Source of the DNA: an uncultured Clostridium sp.
Lineage (GTDB): Bacteria > Bacillota_I > Bacilli_A > RF39 > UBA660
DNA length: 64,000 nucleotides
Direction: 5' to 3'
Assembly (NCBI GenBank): GCA_964578175.1
Contig: CAZOBH010000003.1
Coordinates: 10,159 to 74,158, forward strand
Shown here one piece after another: positions 9,726-55,294 of the stretch. Position 1 is the first letter of the stretch. The number at the start of each line of letters is the position of its first letter. Both the position numbers and the translations under genes were made by a program. The notes beneath the pieces were generated by a model. It made no database searches. It worked only from the letters and a program-made list of their open reading frames with translations, and was not told the origin of the DNA.

Positions 9726-10904
9726 CTATTTTATTAAGTCTTTAGTATCCATTGCTATCATTAATTCTTCATCAGTTGGTACTAAATATGATAGAATTGA
9801 TGAATCTTCAGCACTTATCTTTCTAAGTTCTCCACGAACATCATTTGCTTTATTATCAACTTTTACACCTAAAACATCTAATTTGTTTAAGATTTCAGCT
9901 CTAGTAGTAGCACTATTTTCCCCAATTCCAGCAGTAAATGTAATTACATCACATCCACCTAGTTCTACATAATATTGAGCTATATATTTAACTACACTAT
10001 TAACGAATAAATCTTCAGCTAATTTACACCTTTCGTTTCCTTCTTTGATTCCATCTTCGATATCGCGTGAATCAGAACTAACTCCACTAACACCTAAGAA
10101 TCCAGATTTTTTATTTAAAGCATTAACTACTTCTCCAGCACTTAATCCTTCTTTTTCCATAACATAAGGAACCATAGATACATCAATATCTCCTGAACGT
10201 GTTCCCATAACTACTCCTGCAAGTGGAGTAAATCCCATAGATGTATCAACACATTTTCCAGAATCAATTGCGCATATACTTGCTCCTTGTCCTAAATGAC
10301 ATGAAATAACTTTTAAATCATCTCTTCCAAGTTCTTCAGCAATTTTCTTAGATATATATTTATGACTTGTTCCATGAGCACCATATTTTCTAACACCATC
10401 TTTTTCATACCATTCATATGGTACAGCATATAAGAATCTTTCCTTTGTCATTGTTTGATGAAATGCTGTATCAAATACTGCAACCATTGGAGTATTAGGT
10501 AAAATCTTTTTAAATGCCTTAATTCCAATAACATGTGCAGGATTATGAAGAGGAGCAAGATCAGATAATTCAATAATATCATTTAGAACTTTATCAGTGA
10601 TTACTACTGACTTATCATATCTATCAGCACCTTGTACTATACGATGTCCAACACCATCAATTTCTTCATAACTTGATATAATTTTTAATTCTATTAATTT
10701 ATCAAGTAATATCTTTACTGCTTCAGAATGATCTTCCATTTCAGCATCTTCTTGAATTTTAAATTCTTTATTTTTTATAGTGTAACAACTTCCATCAGTA
10801 CCTATTCTTTCAAATAGACCTGAAACCATTACTTCGTTAGTGTCCATATCAAATAATTTAAATTTTAATGAACTACTACCAGCATTAATTGACATAATTT
10901 TCAT
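9726..10904 (-). CDS. ackA: Acetate kinase
   Basis: MKIMSINAGSSSLKFKLF N-terminus and acetokinase-family length and motifs. Confidence 0.9.
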   Translation of the reverse strand: MKIMSINAGSSSLKFKLFDMDTNEVMVSGLFERIGTDGSCYTIKNKEFKIQEDAEMEDHSEAVKILLDKLIELKIISSYEEIDGVGHRIVQGADRYDKSVVITDKVLNDIIELSDLAPLHNPAHVIGIKAFKKILPNTPMVAVFDTAFHQTMTKERFLYAVPYEWYEKDGVRKYGAHGTSHKYISKKIAEELGRDDLKVISCHLGQGASICAIDSGKCVDTSMGFTPLAGVVMGTRSGDIDVSMVPYVMEKEGLSAGEVVNALNKKSGFLGVSGVSSDSRDIEDGIKEGNERCKLAEDLFVNSVVKYIAQYYVELGGCDVITFTAGIGENSATTRAEILNKLDVLGVKVDNKANDVRGELRKISAEDSSILSYLVPTDEELMIAMDTKDLIK

Positions 10905-12190: not shown

Positions 12191-13438
12191 TTATAAATTA
12201 CTAACCCAAATTGATATATACTTAGATAATATATCATATCCTTTACCATTTAAATGTATTTCATACATATCTTCATTTCTAAAACAAGATCCATTTTCAA
12301 CATCTAATAATTCACTATAAGAAATTGACTTTTTATTTTCATATACTTTTCCACTATATAAGTCTAAATAAGGAATATCCCATTTATTTGCTATTTCTTT
12401 TCCAAGTTCTATTTGTTTATCTCTATCTACAGTTTTTTGATTTTTAGCTTTAGGAGTACTATAAGTTAATATATATCCTATTTTAGCATCTTTATGATAT
12501 TTTCTTAAATAATAAAATATTTCTTCTAATCCACCTGCATAAGTATCAGTATCAAACTCATCTACTCTTTTTGAATCTGCTATTTCTCCGTTTTCTACGC
12601 CTCTACTTGCATCATTTATTCCACCTTGTACAATTATATAGTCGTACTCTTGATCTTTAGTTTTTTCAACTTGATCAATTATAGATTTATTGGAATGAGA
12701 AATAGTTGCACCATTTATTCCATAATTCTCCCAATCCATAAAATTAGCAAAACCAACTCTAGATGCCCATCCACCATATTTTTCATAAGTTGCTGCTGTA
12801 ATACTATCACCAATAAATAGTATTTTTTTACCTTCTAATTTATGTTTGTTGTTATAATATATAGTTTGTTCACTAATACTTTCTAATCCATTTTTGGATT
12901 TAGCTGTACATACTACTTTAGAATTATATATAGATTTATTTTTAACTTCACAATTGAATGATAAAATACCTATTTTTGATTTAACTTCATACATTGATTT
13001 ATAATCTAATTCTTCATTTTTATTATTTTGTATTATTACTTCATATTTTGGTTTTATAACAGGAAGACTTGCATCTACTAAATAGTATTTTTCATCACAA
13101 TATTTATTAACTTTTCCATTAACATCAGTAATTTTTATACAAATATGTTTCTTTTCCTCATACTCAGGATAAGAAATATTCAAATTAATAATTCTTTTAT
13201 TAACATCTACTTCACTGTTTAAAAAATCATTACAATAATCTTCAGTTGTAAAACAATAATCAATAGATTTAATTTTCTTATTAAAATTTAAAATTATTGA
13301 TTTAACTATAACACTATTATAATATGAATCAGTACCTGATTTCTTACTATAAGTAAAATATATTGGTGAACTATATATATTCCCACCAAAAATAGTTAAT
13401 GTTGTAATTAATATTATTAAGTATATAATCTTTTTCAT
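12191..13438 (-). CDS. Secreted SGNH/GDSL-family hydrolase with an N-terminal domain of unknown function
   Basis: Signal peptide. Block I FIGDSIT and block III GGINDA. Confidence 0.65.
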   Translation of the reverse strand: MKKIIYLIILITTLTIFGGNIYSSPIYFTYSKKSGTDSYYNSVIVKSIILNFNKKIKSIDYCFTTEDYCNDFLNSEVDVNKRIINLNISYPEYEEKKHICIKITDVNGKVNKYCDEKYYLVDASLPVIKPKYEVIIQNNKNEELDYKSMYEVKSKIGILSFNCEVKNKSIYNSKVVCTAKSKNGLESISEQTIYYNNKHKLEGKKILFIGDSITAATYEKYGGWASRVGFANFMDWENYGINGATISHSNKSIIDQVEKTKDQEYDYIIVQGGINDASRGVENGEIADSKRVDEFDTDTYAGGLEEIFYYLRKYHKDAKIGYILTYSTPKAKNQKTVDRDKQIELGKEIANKWDIPYLDLYSGKVYENKKSISYSELLDVENGSCFRNEDMYEIHLNGKGYDILSKYISIWVSNL

Positions 13439-49003: not shown

Positions 49004-49032
49004 ACAAAAAAAGCCCGAATAATCGGACTTTC
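49004..49032 (-). terminator. Terminator of the rplM-rpsI operon
   Basis: AAAGtCCGA-ttat-TCGGGCTTT hairpin followed by U7 on the minus strand. Confidence 0.55.
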
Positions 49033-49973: not shown

Positions 49974-50002
49974 ATTATACTAAAATGCTCCTAAAATGTC
50001 AA
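49974..50002 (-). promoter_or_regulatory. Consensus sigma-A promoter for rplM-rpsI (TTGACA, 17-nt spacer, TATAAT) plus a leader hairpin
   Basis: Exact -35/-10 hexamers with a 17-nt spacer. The leader contains a GACTTT-ggccgg-AAAGTC hairpin (49928-49945 on the plus strand). Confidence 0.6.
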
Positions 50003-50026: not shown

Positions 50027-50758
50027 TTAGTAATTTACTTTAAATAAATACAATCCCTCACTTTTAGCAGTATATACATACTTATCATATTTTTTATCTT
50101 CAAATATTTTATCGATGATATCAACATCCAGTTTACCAGCACCAATTTTTATTAATGTACCTACCATATTCCTAATTTGGTACTTCATAAATCCATTACC
50201 AGTAAAAGAAATAGTAATTATATCTTTATCTTTAGCTATATTTACTTTATATATTTCTCTAACATAATTATCTTTTTTTGCATTCTTAGAAACAAAAGAT
50301 TCGAAATTATGTATACCAATATATTTCTTTATCGCTAAATTCATTTTATCAATATCTAATTCCCTATTGTATTGATAAACATAATTTCTATCTAACGGAT
50401 TATATTCACCTACGTTAATTTTATAGATATACTCTTTTTCTTTAACCATATATCTTGGATGAAAATCATCATCAATTCTATTTACCTCAAAAACATGTAT
50501 ATCATCTGGTAAAAATGTATTCAAAGCTCTTTTCAATTTATAATCAGTTATTGATATATCTAATGTAAAAGAAACAACTTGATCCAATGCATGAACTCCT
50601 CTATCAGTTCTACCAGATGCTGTTACCTTACTATAAATATTATTATTAATCTCTTTAACTGCTCTTTCTAATTCACTTTCAACACATCTTTTATTAGGTT
50701 GTTTTTCATACCCATAAAAATTGGTTCCATCATAAGATAATCTAACAATATATCTCAT
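50027..50758 (-). CDS. truA: tRNA pseudouridine(38-40) synthase TruA
   Basis: MRYIVRLSYDGTNFYGYEKQP. Catalytic Asp in a RTDRGVHA motif. Confidence 0.9.
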   Translation of the reverse strand: MRYIVRLSYDGTNFYGYEKQPNKRCVESELERAVKEINNNIYSKVTASGRTDRGVHALDQVVSFTLDISITDYKLKRALNTFLPDDIHVFEVNRIDDDFHPRYMVKEKEYIYKINVGEYNPLDRNYVYQYNRELDIDKMNLAIKKYIGIHNFESFVSKNAKKDNYVREIYKVNIAKDKDIITISFTGNGFMKYQIRNMVGTLIKIGAGKLDVDIIDKIFEDKKYDKYVYTAKSEGLYLFKVNY

Positions 50759-50759
50759 A

Positions 50760-51389
50760 TTACATACCAAATACTATAACTATAACAAAGAATAGTAATG
50801 TAACTGCTATATAAAAATTGTCATAATTATTCCAAGAGAAAGACAACTTACTCTTCTTATTAGTAAAGAATCTATCAAATCTCATCTTATCTAATAAATA
50901 TAAATCATCAATTCTTACTTCAGCTTTCTTCTCAGCTTCTTCTTTTAAGAATTTTTTATATTTATCTTTTTCAAATAAGTATTTATTAACACTTTCATTA
51001 TAATCATCAATTTCATTAATAATATCTTTGTAATAGTATCTTCTCATATATCTTTTTAATTGTTTTGTAGTTCTATTTCTATAAAATAATTTATCATATA
51101 GATATCTCTTTTCTAGAGATAATAAACTTGACTCTATTATTAAAGCATATAAAATGACTAAACATACTCTTAACGCTATAAACGTTGGTAAATTATAAGG
51201 TACTAAATATGTTACTAAAAACAATAAAAGAGAGATAAAAAACAAAATCTTATTTTTATTTAAAAAACTAACAATAAAAATCATACCACATATCAATAAG
51301 AAAATATTGTAATTTTTAATAATAACCATTGATATAACTAAAAGGATAAAACTAACTAACTTACCATAAAAACTTAAACCCTTATACAT
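50760..51389 (-). CDS. Polytopic membrane protein in the EcfT position (short and divergent; possible degenerate ECF T-component)
   Basis: Synteny (ecfA-ecfA-X-truA) and TM helices. No recognisable EcfT coupling motif. 209 aa versus the usual ~265. Confidence 0.35.
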   Translation of the reverse strand: MYKGLSFYGKLVSFILLVISMVIIKNYNIFLLICGMIFIVSFLNKNKILFFISLLLFLVTYLVPYNLPTFIALRVCLVILYALIIESSLLSLEKRYLYDKLFYRNRTTKQLKRYMRRYYYKDIINEIDDYNESVNKYLFEKDKYKKFLKEEAEKKAEVRIDDLYLLDKMRFDRFFTNKKSKLSFSWNNYDNFYIAVTLLFFVIVIVFGM

Positions 51390-52170
51390 GTTTATAAATA
51401 TCCTTTATTATATCTCTTGTATCTTTGTGATAAGATAATTTAACAGATTTTTTAGTCTTAGCTAGGTAAGTTACTTTAGTTATACTTGGCATTGGTATGA
51501 TGCCCCCTTTCATAATCTCAGGTGATGTAAATATTTTATCAGTTTGTCCATTCTTATATACTTGATTATTATCTAATAATAATGTTTCATCTGTATATTG
51601 ATATAAAATATTAGTATCGTTTGATGTAATAATTACTAATTTATGATCCTCTTTTAAATTATTTATAATTGTTGCAAGAATTTTCATATTTTTATGATCT
51701 AGTCCTAAAGCATAATTCTTAAATAAAATTACTTCAGGTCCAAATGATAAATTAACAGCAATTGTTAATAAATATTTTTCACTTCTAGATAAAGTATTAA
51801 TACTTCTTCCTAATATATTTTCTTTTAAATTAACTAAACCAATAAACTTTTTAATTATTTTGTCATAATCTCCAGATACTTTTCTAAGTTGTAAATTAAA
51901 TCTAAATTCTTCTTCTACTTTATTTGTATAAAATCTAGGCATACTATCTATAAGTGCAATTGAACTCGAATTATTTTTATAAAATGATTCATTTATTTCA
52001 TTTTTATCATATTGAATATTACCTGAATAATCACTTATATCTCCATTAATAATATCTAATATATATTTTGAATTATCTCCATATATACCAAATATTCTAT
52101 TATTTCCTATTCTAAAAGATATGTCATCTAAATAGTCTTTATATTTTAAATTATTTACTACTAATCCCAT
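51382..52170 (-). CDS. EcfA2-like ABC ATPase homolog with eroded catalytic motifs (pseudo-ATPase)
   Basis: Alignable to the EcfA2 layout, but Walker A reads GIYGDNSKY, the signature motif reads LSRSEK, and Walker B reads ILFKNY. Confidence 0.55.
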   Translation of the reverse strand: MGLVVNNLKYKDYLDDISFRIGNNRIFGIYGDNSKYILDIINGDISDYSGNIQYDKNEINESFYKNNSSSIALIDSMPRFYTNKVEEEFRFNLQLRKVSGDYDKIIKKFIGLVNLKENILGRSINTLSRSEKYLLTIAVNLSFGPEVILFKNYALGLDHKNMKILATIINNLKEDHKLVIITSNDTNILYQYTDETLLLDNNQVYKNGQTDKIFTSPEIMKGGIIPMPSITKVTYLAKTKKSVKLSYHKDTRDIIKDIYKHV

Positions 52171-52985
52171 AATGTATCAACCATCTCTTCTTCATTTAAT
52201 ATTACTTTATCTAATAAATTATAAAATTTTAATTTTAAAGACATATCCATCATCACAGGTATTTCAATTCCAATTTTAGTTAACGTATTATCATGTTCTA
52301 ATATATCTTTAAGTCTACCACTATATACTATTGTTCCTTCATTAAGAATTAATAAAGCATCACTATATATTGCCTCTTCTAAATCAGAAGTAGTCATAAT
52401 AACAATAAGTTTTAGCTCTTTTATTATTTTTCTAAGCATTAATAATACTCTTTCTTTATCTTCGGTAGATAATGTTGTTAATATATCATCTAATAATAAT
52501 ACCTTTGGTTCATATATTATAGTAGTAGCAAGTAATACTTTTATTTTCTCAAATTCAGTTAAATCAGAAATACTCTTATTCAATATATCTTGTAAGAATA
52601 ATAGTTTTTTAATCTTATTAACTTGTTGTTTTATTTTCTTCTTACTATAGTTCAAATTATATAAAGGAAATGATACTTCATCTATTACTTTACCAAATAG
52701 GAATTGTTTATTATCCAATGAAAATATAGTCCCAATACTTCTAGAATACTTTCTAATAGTCTTCTTATTTAATGTATCTTCATCTATACTTATTTCCCCA
52801 TCAGTTGGAACAACTCCAGATAAGCATTTGATAAAAGTAGTTTTTCCTCCATTATTCGGAGCAATAAAAGATATTAAAGATGGAACTTTTACTTTAAAAT
52901 TAATATCTTTTAAAATTTCCTTATCACCATATTTAAAACTTAAATCATTAATAGAAATCACACTCATAGAATCACCTTGTCTCAT
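52161..52985 (-). CDS. EcfA1-like ABC ATPase homolog with partly degenerate motifs
   Basis: Walker A APNNGGKTT. The signature region reads ISDLTEFEK rather than LSGGQ. Walker B VLLLDD. Confidence 0.55.
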   Translation of the reverse strand: MRQGDSMSVISINDLSFKYGDKEILKDINFKVKVPSLISFIAPNNGGKTTFIKCLSGVVPTDGEISIDEDTLNKKTIRKYSRSIGTIFSLDNKQFLFGKVIDEVSFPLYNLNYSKKKIKQQVNKIKKLLFLQDILNKSISDLTEFEKIKVLLATTIIYEPKVLLLDDILTTLSTEDKERVLLMLRKIIKELKLIVIMTTSDLEEAIYSDALLILNEGTIVYSGRLKDILEHDNTLTKIGIEIPVMMDMSLKLKFYNLLDKVILNEEEMVDTLWD

Positions 52986-53012: not shown

Positions 53013-53780
53013 CTACTTACCTTTTCGACTTTTTAACTTTTGTTTTTGTATTTTATATGTAAATTTAGCTAGTTTCTTAGTTGATAAGAATCTAGAACCA
53101 AAAATAGCTAGTTTCATTTTTACTCCAGGAATTATAATTAATTTATTTTTAAACATTTTATCGATAGCATATCTAGCTACTTTTTCACTAGACAAAGCTT
53201 TAACTCCAAATTCAACATTTGCTACATTGTTAAAGTTAGTATTAACTGGTCCAGGACATAAACATGAAACATGTACATTTGATTTTTCTCTTCTTAATTC
53301 TTCATATAAGGATGTAGTAAATCTTAGTACATAAGCTTTTGTACTATAATAAGTAGTCATTAAAGGCCCCGGCATAAATGCTGCTGATGAGGCAACATTT
53401 AAAATATAACCTTTATTTTTCTTTTTCATCTCTTTAAGAAATAATTTAGTTAATACATGAACAGCAATAATATTTGTATTAATCATTTCTATTTCTTTAC
53501 TCAAATCTAATTCATCAAAATTACCACACAAACCAAAACCTGCATTGTTTATTAATACATCTACATCTTCGTTTTTGCACAAAACAAATATATCTTTTAA
53601 TTTACTTTCAATAGATAAATCAGCAACTATTATTTTTACATTTGTTTTTATATCTTTTTGCATAAACTGTAGTTTTTCCTTATCTCTTGCAACTAGAATT
53701 AAATCATAACCAAGTTCAGCAAGATAATAAGACATATCTTTTCCAATACCAGATGATGCGCCAGTTATTAATGCTTTCAT
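53013..53780 (-). CDS. SDR-family short-chain dehydrogenase/reductase
   Basis: TGASSGIG cofactor motif and a YxxxK region. Confidence 0.8.
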   Translation of the reverse strand: MKALITGASSGIGKDMSYYLAELGYDLILVARDKEKLQFMQKDIKTNVKIIVADLSIESKLKDIFVLCKNEDVDVLINNAGFGLCGNFDELDLSKEIEMINTNIIAVHVLTKLFLKEMKKKNKGYILNVASSAAFMPGPLMTTYYSTKAYVLRFTTSLYEELRREKSNVHVSCLCPGPVNTNFNNVANVEFGVKALSSEKVARYAIDKMFKNKLIIIPGVKMKLAIFGSRFLSTKKLAKFTYKIQKQKLKSRKGK

Positions 53781-53813: not shown

Positions 53814-54890
53814 TTAAATATCAAAGAAATCTCTTATTAATTCTATATCTTTTTTACTTATATCTTTTACATCTTTAGATTTACTAATATCTACTGATGG
53901 CATAGTTTTATTTATTTCTTCAATAGTTAATGTATAATTTAATTTTAAACTATCTAAGTTAGTAGATAATTCTAAATTAATTTTTTTATCTTTTAATGTA
54001 TATTTTAATGTACCAATAGAATTATTTTTTAAATTCATAAATTCTATATTAAAAATATTATCCTTGTATGTTCCTTTTCCTTTAAATAAGGAATCAACAT
54101 ATAAATCAATTTTGTTATTATTAAAATCAATATATGAATTTTTCTTATTATTAATATATGTAATTCTTAAATGATTTTTATAATTAAATAATTGAAACGA
54201 GATATTCTCTTTAGAATCTATCTCTAATTCTGTTACTATCGGATTATTTTTATATACATAAACAGATAACACACAATTATATTTATTATCTTTTATTTGA
54301 TCCGTAAAACTATTTGATATATTAAAATTATTAAAGAATTTAATTAATGTATCATTATTAATTTTTAATGAATACTTTTTAGTTTTAAATTTATCATTAT
54401 TAATATTAATTGTTTCATTAGTTTTTGTATAATCTTTTTTATATGTATTATTTTTTAAAAAATCTATATAATCTTTATAATTCATTTTTAAATTTTCGTA
54501 ATTAGTATAATAATAACTATCTTGTATTTTAAAATATAATTTATTATCACGATTAAATGCTTTTAAATTATTTTTATCCCTATTTAATGATAGATAGATT
54601 ATATTATCTTTGTAGTAGACATCTCCAGTTAGATTAACTAGATTATCATTATAATTTAATTTTTGTTCTATATTTACACTATAATCATCGTCTAAAAATG
54701 TTGCATACTTATTAATTATTTCATTATATGTTTTTTGTGTTATATCAGCGCTATTATCAATGTATTTGTAAAACTTATTTTTAGGATGATTAAAATAGAA
54801 TAAAAAAGCTAGAAATAGTATGACAATTATTAGAAAAATAAAGAAACTTTTCTTAACTCTTAATTTTTTCTTTTTTCTTTTTTTGTTCAT
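53814..54890 (-). CDS. Secreted or membrane-anchored N/K/Y-rich hypothetical protein
   Basis: Poly-K N-terminus plus a TM helix. Low-complexity composition. Confidence 0.4.
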   Translation of the reverse strand: MNKKRKKKKLRVKKSFFIFLIIVILFLAFLFYFNHPKNKFYKYIDNSADITQKTYNEIINKYATFLDDDYSVNIEQKLNYNDNLVNLTGDVYYKDNIIYLSLNRDKNNLKAFNRDNKLYFKIQDSYYYTNYENLKMNYKDYIDFLKNNTYKKDYTKTNETININNDKFKTKKYSLKINNDTLIKFFNNFNISNSFTDQIKDNKYNCVLSVYVYKNNPIVTELEIDSKENISFQLFNYKNHLRITYINNKKNSYIDFNNNKIDLYVDSLFKGKGTYKDNIFNIEFMNLKNNSIGTLKYTLKDKKINLELSTNLDSLKLNYTLTIEEINKTMPSVDISKSKDVKDISKKDIELIRDFFDI

Positions 54891-54946: not shown

Positions 54947-55294
54947 TTATTCTTCTACTAACTCTAAAATTGCCATTAGAGAATTATCTCCTCTTCTTTC
55001 TGACAATTTAATTATTCTAGTATATCCACCATTTCTTTTTGCGTATTTAGTTGCAAGTTCATCAAATACTTTCTTAACAGCTGCTTCATCATTTTGTAAA
55101 AATGCAAGAGCTTTTCTTCTAGAAACTAAGTTTCCATTTTTACCATAAGTAATCATTTTGTCGACAAACTTACGAACTTCTTTAGCTCTAGTCTCAGTTG
55201 TTTCAATTCTACCGTTCATAATAACATCTTTAGTAAGATTAGCAAGCATACTTCTTCTATGCTTATTATCAACACCTAATTTTCTATATGCCAT
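54947..55294 (-). CDS. rplQ: 50S ribosomal protein L17
   Basis: MAYRKLG...RRGDN pattern. Confidence 0.95.

Follow-up and report, generated by a model that had tools for sequence, protein, structure and literature searches.

An ECF-type energising module with altered ATPase motifs in the rplQ-truA interval of an uncultured Clostridium sp.

The rplQ-truA interval and its A1, A2 and T genes

The window analysed here is a 64-kb stretch of DNA (64,000 nucleotides, positions 10,159 to 74,158 of contig CAZOBH010000003.1) from the genome assembly GCA_964578175.1 of an uncultured Clostridium sp. Between the rplQ and truA genes of this window lie three genes, hereafter A1, A2 and T, which occupy the position of the group-II energy-coupling factor (ECF) module EcfA1-EcfA2-EcfT. 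A1 and A2 encode nucleotide-binding domains (NBDs) of the ATP-binding cassette (ABC) fold in which most of the ATPase motifs are replaced, and T encodes a short protein that resembles EcfT in its predicted fold. All three genes are intact and under purifying selection, and their altered motifs suggest a module that keeps a single ATP site and hydrolyses ATP little or not at all.

The window has a G+C content of ~25% and is read with genetic code 11. Genetic code 4 was rejected, since Trp is encoded by TGG and the two TGA codons that close long open reading frames (ORFs) look like genuine stops. On the minus strand, a compact operon runs in the order rpoA-rplQ-(358-residue protein)-SDR-A1-A2-T-truA-rplM-rpsI, where SDR denotes a short-chain dehydrogenase/reductase. 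The genes considered here are as follows.

52161-52967, minus strand: A1, EcfA1 homologue, 268 residues from the likely start M7 (the longest ORF extends to 52985 and has 274 residues)
51382-52170, minus strand: A2, EcfA2 homologue, 262 residues (best NCBIfam model TIGR04521)
50760-51389, minus strand: T, short and highly diverged EcfT homologue according to its predicted fold, 209 residues (no Pfam or NCBIfam match)
50027-50758, minus strand: truA, 243 residues, downstream flank of the canonical ecf position (TIGR00071, E = 1e-62)
54947-55294, minus strand: rplQ (ribosomal protein L17), upstream flank of the canonical ecf position (PF01196; synteny with Bacillus thuringiensis)
53013-53780, minus strand: SDR oxidoreductase, 255 residues, immediately upstream of A1 (Pfam adh_short, E = 5e-42)
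53814-54890, minus strand: membrane-anchored protein of 358 residues
55310-56260, minus strand: rpoA

The same slot of the B. thuringiensis operon (locus L081) holds rplQ-ecfA1-ecfA2-ecfT-truA-rplM-rpsI. The window has this Firmicute ecf synteny, with the gene of the 358-residue protein and the SDR gene as additions between rplQ and A1. The A1 stop overlaps the A2 start by 10 nucleotides and the A2 stop overlaps the T start by 8 nucleotides, and the T stop and the truA start are 1 nucleotide apart; A1, A2 and T are intact and translationally coupled. No second ecf locus was found in the 64-kb window, where A1 and A2 are the sole ABC NBDs.

Position and reciprocal-best scores identify A1 as the orthologue of EcfA1 and A2 as that of EcfA2. 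Compared with the B. thuringiensis proteins, A1 scores higher with EcfA1 (118.9 bits) than with EcfA2 (88.5 bits), and A2 scores higher with EcfA2 (37.3 bits) than with EcfA1 (26.0 bits). These scores and the synteny bear out the preliminary description of this DNA, which had placed two ABC-fold genes in the EcfA1 and EcfA2 slots between rplQ and truA. The top NCBIfam model of A1 is TIGR04520 (ECF_ATPase_1) with 155.4 bits against a cutoff of 315, so that homology is clear but the equivalog level is not reached; A2 likewise stays below that level with its top model, TIGR04521 (ECF_ATPase_2; 75.1 bits against a cutoff of 330). The top PDB matches are EcfA1 chains (E = 3e-30 for A1), and the alignment of A1 with Lactobacillus delbrueckii EcfA1 (5d3m_A) reaches the last residues (IGIEIPVMM...MVDTLW versus IGLDIPFVY...LVQSLW) and thus includes the EcfA-type C-terminal domain. 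The C-terminal domain of A2 aligns with EcfA chains through residue 243. Unrelated ABC paralogues were rejected on the basis of the reciprocal best matches, the synteny and the adjacent EcfT-fold gene. Gene callers and all homologues use M7 of A1 (52967) as the start, and a Shine-Dalgarno-like AAGGTGA lies upstream; the 274-residue ORF is probably over-extended, with the true start at M7. The A1 residue numbers given below follow the 274-residue ORF.

T has no match in Pfam or NCBIfam, and the same holds for 44 relatives. The CbiQ model (PF02361) gave no match with the window T, and its best result among 44 family members was a single one at E = 1.2. A profile search of 1.84 billion representatives returned only 41 T clusters, in which nearly all full-length members have 188-217 residues. 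The AlphaFold2 (AF2) model built from a 44-sequence alignment (predicted local distance difference test, pLDDT, 89.9; predicted TM-score, pTM, 0.78) contains three short transmembrane (TM) helices, a fourth TM helix that extends cytoplasmically (67-88, 91-102), a pair of long helices (108-135, 141-171) and a TM helix at the C-terminus. This order matches the layout of EcfT, in which a TM bundle at the N-terminus is followed by two long coupling helices and a last TM helix. In a Foldseek search of the PDB with this model, the top eight matches were all EcfT or CbiQ (probability 0.89-0.99 for the top five; TM-score 0.38-0.49), with modest E-values of 0.03-0.1, and 8bms gave the highest TM-score (TMq 0.49). 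An earlier AF2 model from a shallow alignment (pLDDT 75.8) had no significant fold match, and EcfT ranked second there at E = 6.4.

Sequence profiles also connect the C-terminal part of T with EcfT. A profile of close T homologues searched against PDB sequences returned only noise, and the C-terminal subprofile ranked L. delbrueckii EcfT (residues 227-263) first among 177,635 PDB sequences. With hhalign, T is collinear end to end with the Bacillus and Mesomycoplasma EcfT proteins (P = 0.003), and in the local alignment with Bacillus EcfT (P = 0.009), R170, W186 and D190 fall on the ARGY...RT...W...D pattern.

50820-50882, minus strand: T R170-D190, RFDRFFTNKKSKLSFSWNNYD, counterpart of EcfT ARGY...RT...W...D

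This segment comprises the end of coupling helix 3 and the beginning of the last TM helix, and it aligns with B. thuringiensis EcfT EARGYQSGEGRTKFRQLRWKTSD. Of the 44 members of the T family, at least 90% have R170 and all have D190, and the second Ala-Arg-Gly coupling motif takes the nearly invariant form R170-F-[DY]. At the position of the first Arg motif, T has only a conserved Lys/Tyr pair (K136-Y137), and the alignment there is uncertain. By its predicted fold, the 209-residue protein is a truncated EcfT homologue. Its shortness had been recognised at the outset; the accompanying remark that T lacks obvious coupling-helix motifs is only partly correct, since R170 aligns with the second Arg motif of EcfT.

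ATPase motifs and the two composite nucleotide sites

The register of the NBD motifs was set by phmmer alignments with L. delbrueckii EcfA1 (5d3m_A) and by MAFFT alignments with B. thuringiensis EcfA1 and EcfA2 and with 67-68 family members. The hidden Markov model and MAFFT alignments contain no gaps near Walker A, Walker B or the H-loop, and a misregistration of the motifs was therefore rejected. The motif positions are listed below.

52836-52862, minus strand: A1 Walker A, APNNGGKTT (residues 42-50), aligned to GHNGSGKST and GQNGSGKST
52545-52562, minus strand: A1 signature position, LTEFEK in place of LSGGQK (residues 142-147), from the alignments
52485-52502, minus strand: A1 Walker B, VLLLDD (residues 162-167), Mg-binding Asp retained and catalytic Glu replaced with Asp
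52386-52388, minus strand: A1 H-loop position, Ser200 in place of His, in the ungapped alignment VIMTTSDLEEA versus VISITHDLEEA
52063-52089, minus strand: A2 Walker A remnant, GIYGDNSKY (residues 28-36), without GK[ST], Lys replaced with Ser in an ungapped alignment
51775-51792, minus strand: A2 signature variant, LSRSEK (residues 127-132), aligned to LSGGQ
51712-51732, minus strand: A2 Walker B position, VILFKNY (residues 147-153), acidic pair absent
51385-51417, minus strand: A2 C-terminal helix, RDIIKDIYKHV (residues 252-262), invariant in all relatives found

The Walker A segment of A1 retains GK[ST] and conforms to the pattern [AG]x4GK[ST]. Besides the signature, the catalytic Glu and the H-loop His, A1 has also changed the Q-loop Gln (to Ser) and the D-loop (SMLD to TTLS), so that Walker A and the Walker B Asp are all that is left of the full ATPase motif set. 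None of 67 relatives has His in the H-loop column of A1, where Ser occurs in 32, Ile in 10, Leu in 5 and other residues in the rest. A2 retains the LD of the D-loop (residues 157-158), its H-loop His is replaced with Asn, and LSxSE and the D-loop are its only remaining motifs. At the Walker B position of A2, DEP or EEP is still present in many relatives, and GxGKS in Walker A is found in only 2 of 68.

These alignments reproduce the motif registration of the preliminary description against the solved and the Bacillus EcfA proteins. Its statement that A2 has lost the Walker A Lys (GIYGDNSKY) and the Walker B acidic pair (ILFKN) agrees with the profile alignments. It was also right that LSRSE stands in place of LSGGQ, but the signature of A2 is not gone altogether, since LSxSE is conserved and keeps the phosphate-contacting Ser. 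For A1, the retained GGKTT and the changes to LTEFE and DD stand as described, and the list has to be extended by the Q-loop Gln, the D-loop and the H-loop His.

Column entropies over 67-68 species separate the two composite nucleotide sites. Site 1, composed of the P-loop and Walker B Asp of A1 and the LSxSE and D-loop of A2, is near-invariant. The N, G and K residues of the A1 Walker A are invariant in 67 relatives (mean 0.55 bits), the A1 Walker B Asp is found in 65 of 67, and A2 has both the S and E of LSxSE (mean 0.81 bits) and the D-loop Asp in 68 of 68; the A-loop Tyr is also conserved in the family. Site 2 has the make-up of the degenerate site in asymmetric heterodimeric ABC proteins (PMC3971661), with the Walker A, Walker B and H-loop of A2 and the signature and D-loop of A1; its elements are unconstrained and drifting (means of 2.25 bits for the A2 Walker A, 2.37 for the A1 signature and 2.46 for the A1 D-loop).

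Site 1 is not a fully canonical consensus site either, as its catalytic Glu, H-loop His and Q-loop Gln are all missing. After the A1 Walker B Asp, 46 of 67 relatives have D, 17 have N and 2 have E, with Asn or Gln at this base position in about a quarter of the species; 47 of 67 have a deletion at the Q-loop Gln. The lack of the Walker B Glu is an accepted hallmark of a non-hydrolytic ABC site (PMC3971661 and PMC7544095). From its residues, site 1 could still clamp one ATP, and only site 2 appears to be truly dead. The earlier conclusion that a canonical ATP sandwich cannot form therefore applies to site 2 and is overstated for site 1, which is nearly invariant.

Conservation in relatives and interpretation of the module

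With one genome per species scanned, the A2 type was found in at least 135 species. The carriers are all uncultured gut or rumen metagenome assemblies labelled Bacilli, Tenericutes, Mollicutes or Erysipelotrichaceae, and they include Clostridium sp. CAG:710, Candidatus Scybalousia and Candidatus Faecimonas. The A1, A2 and T homologues share 31-74% identity, and most of them keep ~268, 262 and 209 residues, respectively, even at 31-35% identity; the A2 homologues (n = 65, 33-68% identity) nearly all have ~254-263 residues, with a few truncated entries. The ORFs are full length in 80 species-level loci and intact in every relative examined. The ratio of nonsynonymous to synonymous substitution rates (dN/dS; Nei-Gojobori method, 25 close species pairs) ranges from 0.03 to 0.24 for A1 and A2 and is 0.10 for T; truA falls in the same range. 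A1, A2 and T are under purifying selection and represent a selected variant, not decaying genes. The searches that collected the relatives started from exact words and patterns of the C-terminal end of A2, so that the invariance of RDIIKDIYKH[VI] is partly a matter of ascertainment and the number of species is a minimum. Since the synonymous codon positions of this helix vary freely, the constraint acts on the protein, and an RNA-level cause of the invariant C-terminus was rejected.

In 81 loci, the gene order is rpoA-rplQ-(variable)-SDR-A1-A2-[T]-truA, and T is present in 24 of them. A phmmer search with B. thuringiensis EcfT against all ORFs of the collected loci returned nothing. In a neighbour-joining tree of A1 and A2 rooted on Bacillus, the family has a long stem, the T-bearing lineages including the window are basal, and the loci without T form one large derived clade and two scattered branches (L042 and L056). 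This topology implies that the derived NBD state arose once and that one descendant clade later lost T or relocated it to a place outside the locus. Mesomycoplasma hyopneumoniae, a minimal organism, keeps every canonical motif in EcfA1, EcfA2 and EcfT, and thus the erosion is not general to reduced Firmicute-derived genomes but lineage-specific.

The Q-loop region of A1 (residues 86-92) covaries with the presence of T. T-bearing loci have (V/I)FS.D or VLEDID without a gap, and almost all T-less loci have (I/V)I-P[LKQ][ED] with a one-residue deletion. The two A2 homologues with GxGKS, L015:10001-10792 (GVTGEGKST) and L069:7887-8678 (GITGEGKSL), combine a seemingly intact Walker A with a DEP Walker B, which looks like a remnant of the ancestral state within the T-less clade.

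We lean towards the reading that A1-A2-T is this lineage's orthologue of the group-II ECF energising module, strongly derived but functional and kept by selection, with a single ATP site and little or no hydrolysis. When a canonical ECF transporter binds ATP, its NBDs close, the two coupling helices bend and the S-component is expelled; hydrolysis then returns the module to its starting state (PMC10368641). In the module considered here, A1 and A2 would form a heterodimer that is held together by the conserved C-terminal domains, docks on the short EcfT-like T and clamps one Mg-ATP at site 1. Closure would follow ATP binding, and reopening would take place through very slow hydrolysis or through release or exchange of the nucleotide. 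Such a low-turnover or binding-driven motor could serve S-components encoded elsewhere in the genome and allow vitamin import at a trace level, which would suit a small-genome, vitamin-auxotrophic gut organism. Since RF39-type gut Bacilli are without vitamin biosynthesis (PMC6784871), vitamin uptake would be needed.

The likeness to the group-II modules of L. delbrueckii (5d3m/8bms), L. brevis (4huq) and B. thuringiensis (L081) lies in the rplQ-truA slot, the gene order A1-A2-T with overlapping stops and starts, and the NBD fold including the EcfA-specific C-terminal domain; T shares with EcfT the helix layout, the second coupling-helix Arg and the W...D motif. Unlike these modules, the NBDs score far under the equivalog cutoffs, neither of them has LSGGQ, the catalytic Glu or the H-loop His, and A2 is without the P-loop Lys. 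In addition, T is ~55 residues shorter and invisible to the Pfam CbiQ model, an SDR gene is inserted upstream, and most members of the clade have no T at this locus.

Several points weigh against our reading. In 57 of the 81 loci, A2 is followed directly by truA, with neither a T-like nor an EcfT gene inside 10 kb. The A1 and A2 genes of the T-less loci are still under purifying selection (dN/dS ~0.1), which hints that the pair can work without EcfT. No S-component was found among the membrane proteins of the window or in ~1.3 Mb of related loci, and the small multi-TM ORFs of the window and 80 loci were only Bax1-I, BrkB, ZIP, CDP-OH transferase, FNT and similar proteins. An Asp at the catalytic position can support residual hydrolysis, so that slow turnover and none look alike. 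Since the catalytic position is Asn in about a quarter of the species (17 of 67), selection seems to preserve ATP binding rather than hydrolysis, and this argues that hydrolysis is not what the module is kept for. Finally, the carriers presumably belong to the order RF39 and its neighbours, an assumption that we base on the GTDB placement of CAG:710, Scybalousia and Faecimonas.

A tentative alternative to the ECF module is that A1 and A2 have become a "pseudo-ABC" heterodimer that binds a single ATP without hydrolysing it, and whose selected function no longer depends on ATP turnover or, in most of the clade, on EcfT. The new partners might then be the always-adjacent SDR and, in T-less species, the TM-hairpin protein described in the last section. 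Somewhat more doubtful is the more specific version in which the ATP-binding, non-hydrolysing pair was repurposed for a role such as sensing, regulation or scaffolding and is no longer a transport motor. An EcfT remnant would tether the pair to the membrane in the basal lineages, such as that of the window, and in the derived clade the pair would be free or attached to a different partner. A repurposed, non-catalytic module had been raised in the preliminary description and is viable; catalytic motifs are missing in both NBDs. Repurposing would fit the 57 loci without T within 10 kb and their persistently low dN/dS, the grouping of T-less loci into one derived clade with its own conserved A1 Q-loop (I-P[LKQ][ED], with the one-residue deletion), the Asn at the catalytic position, the almost constant SDR neighbour and the lack of visible S-components in the window and related flanks; the C-terminal helix of A2, invariant in the protein, suggests a highly constrained partner interface. 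On the other hand, the window lineage keeps an EcfT homologue that is translationally coupled, under purifying selection and conserved at its coupling-helix Arg, T may be encoded elsewhere in the T-less genomes, and no domain indicates an alternative function. The SDR adjacency counts for little here, because gene order in the ribosomal super-operon persists by inertia.

The conserved P-loop, Walker B Asp, A-loop Tyr, signature Ser and D-loop Asp could also belong to an ordinary ECF ATPase in disguise, whose site 1 hydrolyses ATP at a normal rate with Asp or substitute residues, and the Asp at the catalytic position of the window A1 is a possible weak general base. We regard this as unlikely, since Glu, His and Gln are all missing together, the base is Asn or Gln in so many species, and the NCBIfam scores are under half of the equivalog cutoffs; moreover, a Glu-to-Asp change is what defines the inactive degenerate sites of heterodimeric ABC exporters (PMC3971661). 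Loss of motifs in both NBDs, the truncation of T and its absence from many relatives might instead be signs of a relic, a system being lost under relaxed selection, and the preliminary description had considered a degenerating vitamin-uptake system. This is very improbable, as there are no frameshifts or stops, dN/dS equals that of truA, lengths are conserved, and the variant motifs are invariant and the altered motifs conserved across at least 135 species. Pseudogenes were rejected by the dN/dS values.

The A1-A2 pair also resembles heterodimeric ABC proteins (TM287/288, LmrCD, TAP1/2, CFTR and ABCB11), in which one NBD supplies Walker A, Walker B and the H-loop to the dead site and its partner supplies the signature, the other composite site is conserved, and a Walker B Glu-to-Asp change occurs. 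In contrast to these proteins, the "good" site of A1-A2 is also without the catalytic Glu, His and Gln, and LSxSE replaces LSGGQ. Classical degenerate sites bind ATP tightly, whereas the dead site here probably binds no nucleotide, since the P-loop Lys of A2 is lost. The examples named above are exporters or channels, whereas A1-A2-T is of the ECF importer type. Within the ECF family, a close counterpart is the engineered E-to-Q module of 8bms ("2EQ" solitary, ATP-bound and closed), which is hydrolysis-deficient, as A1-A2-T is predicted to be from its sequence, and still closes on bound ATP. However, 8bms was made in the laboratory and has two ATP sites with the other motifs intact, whereas A1-A2-T occurs naturally, has a single site and is conserved across an order-level clade. 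Full-text literature searches found no description of degenerate-site ECF modules.

The general view of ECF modules is that they are motors with an obligate need for ATP hydrolysis, and they are being pursued as antibiotic targets. If our reading is true, A1-A2-T would be a naturally occurring ECF module under strong conservation, in which one site is dead and the other has lost all of its catalytic residues. It would offer a test of how far the ECF cycle of S-component expulsion, docking and toppling runs on ATP binding alone, and it would carry the concept of the degenerate site from exporters to ECF importers. If the pair is instead a pseudo-ABC heterodimer, it would be a natural, order-wide case of an ABC motor that has become a switch or scaffold and only binds ATP. 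The genes are carried by prevalent, uncultured Bacilli of the gut whose reduced genomes lack vitamin biosynthesis, and the way in which these bacteria acquire micronutrients bears on their ecology and on attempts at culturing. NCBI labels both NBDs "ATP-binding cassette domain-containing protein" and leaves the T protein unnamed, and metabolic reconstructions that rely on such annotation may miss the A1-A2-T system.

Neighbouring genes

The SDR gene is directly upstream of A1, or at most two ORFs away, in nearly all 81 loci, and the B. thuringiensis operon has no such gene. This association may reflect a functional link or merely inherited gene order. The SDR protein has a Lys-rich amphipathic C-terminal tail, and its top NCBIfam model is "mycolate reductase" with 161 bits against a cutoff of 380. 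Upstream of the SDR, the 358-residue protein (53814-54890) is rich in Asn and Lys and has a single N-terminal TM anchor. It has no Pfam match and a weak NCBIfam match to MG319/MPN454 (E = 0.008), and the gene in this slot varies in length and identity among relatives.

In T-less loci, the gap between truA and rplM contains a conserved protein of ~255 residues (up to ~450) with a central two-TM hairpin and highly charged flanks. It carries the motif NFQC[IV]N[IV]QNYNIYR and has no Pfam match. One or two Thr/Ala-rich proteins of ~115 residues, also without a Pfam match, accompany it. Examples of the two kinds are L020:11933-12700 and 12702-13049 (plus strand), and they occur in 29 other T-less loci, e.g., L012, L039 and L063. 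Both kinds are absent from the window and from the T-bearing loci, and they may be a replacement membrane partner.

In the window, the truA-rplM gap contains a perfect 12/12 sigma-70 consensus, TTGACA-17-TATAAT, at 49974-50002 (minus strand), and a good intrinsic terminator follows rpsI at 49009-49032 (minus strand). The rplM-rpsI pair may have its own promoter, separate from A1-A2-T-truA, although the promoter matches in the scan of the window are at chance level overall. Directly downstream of rpsI, the segment 46835-48982 (minus strand) encodes a 366-residue protein without a Pfam match and an Abi_2 (abortive-infection) protein of 315 residues. A defence-type gene thus adjoins the ribosomal operon, and an Abi_2-like ORF follows rpsI also in L002, L010 and L056.

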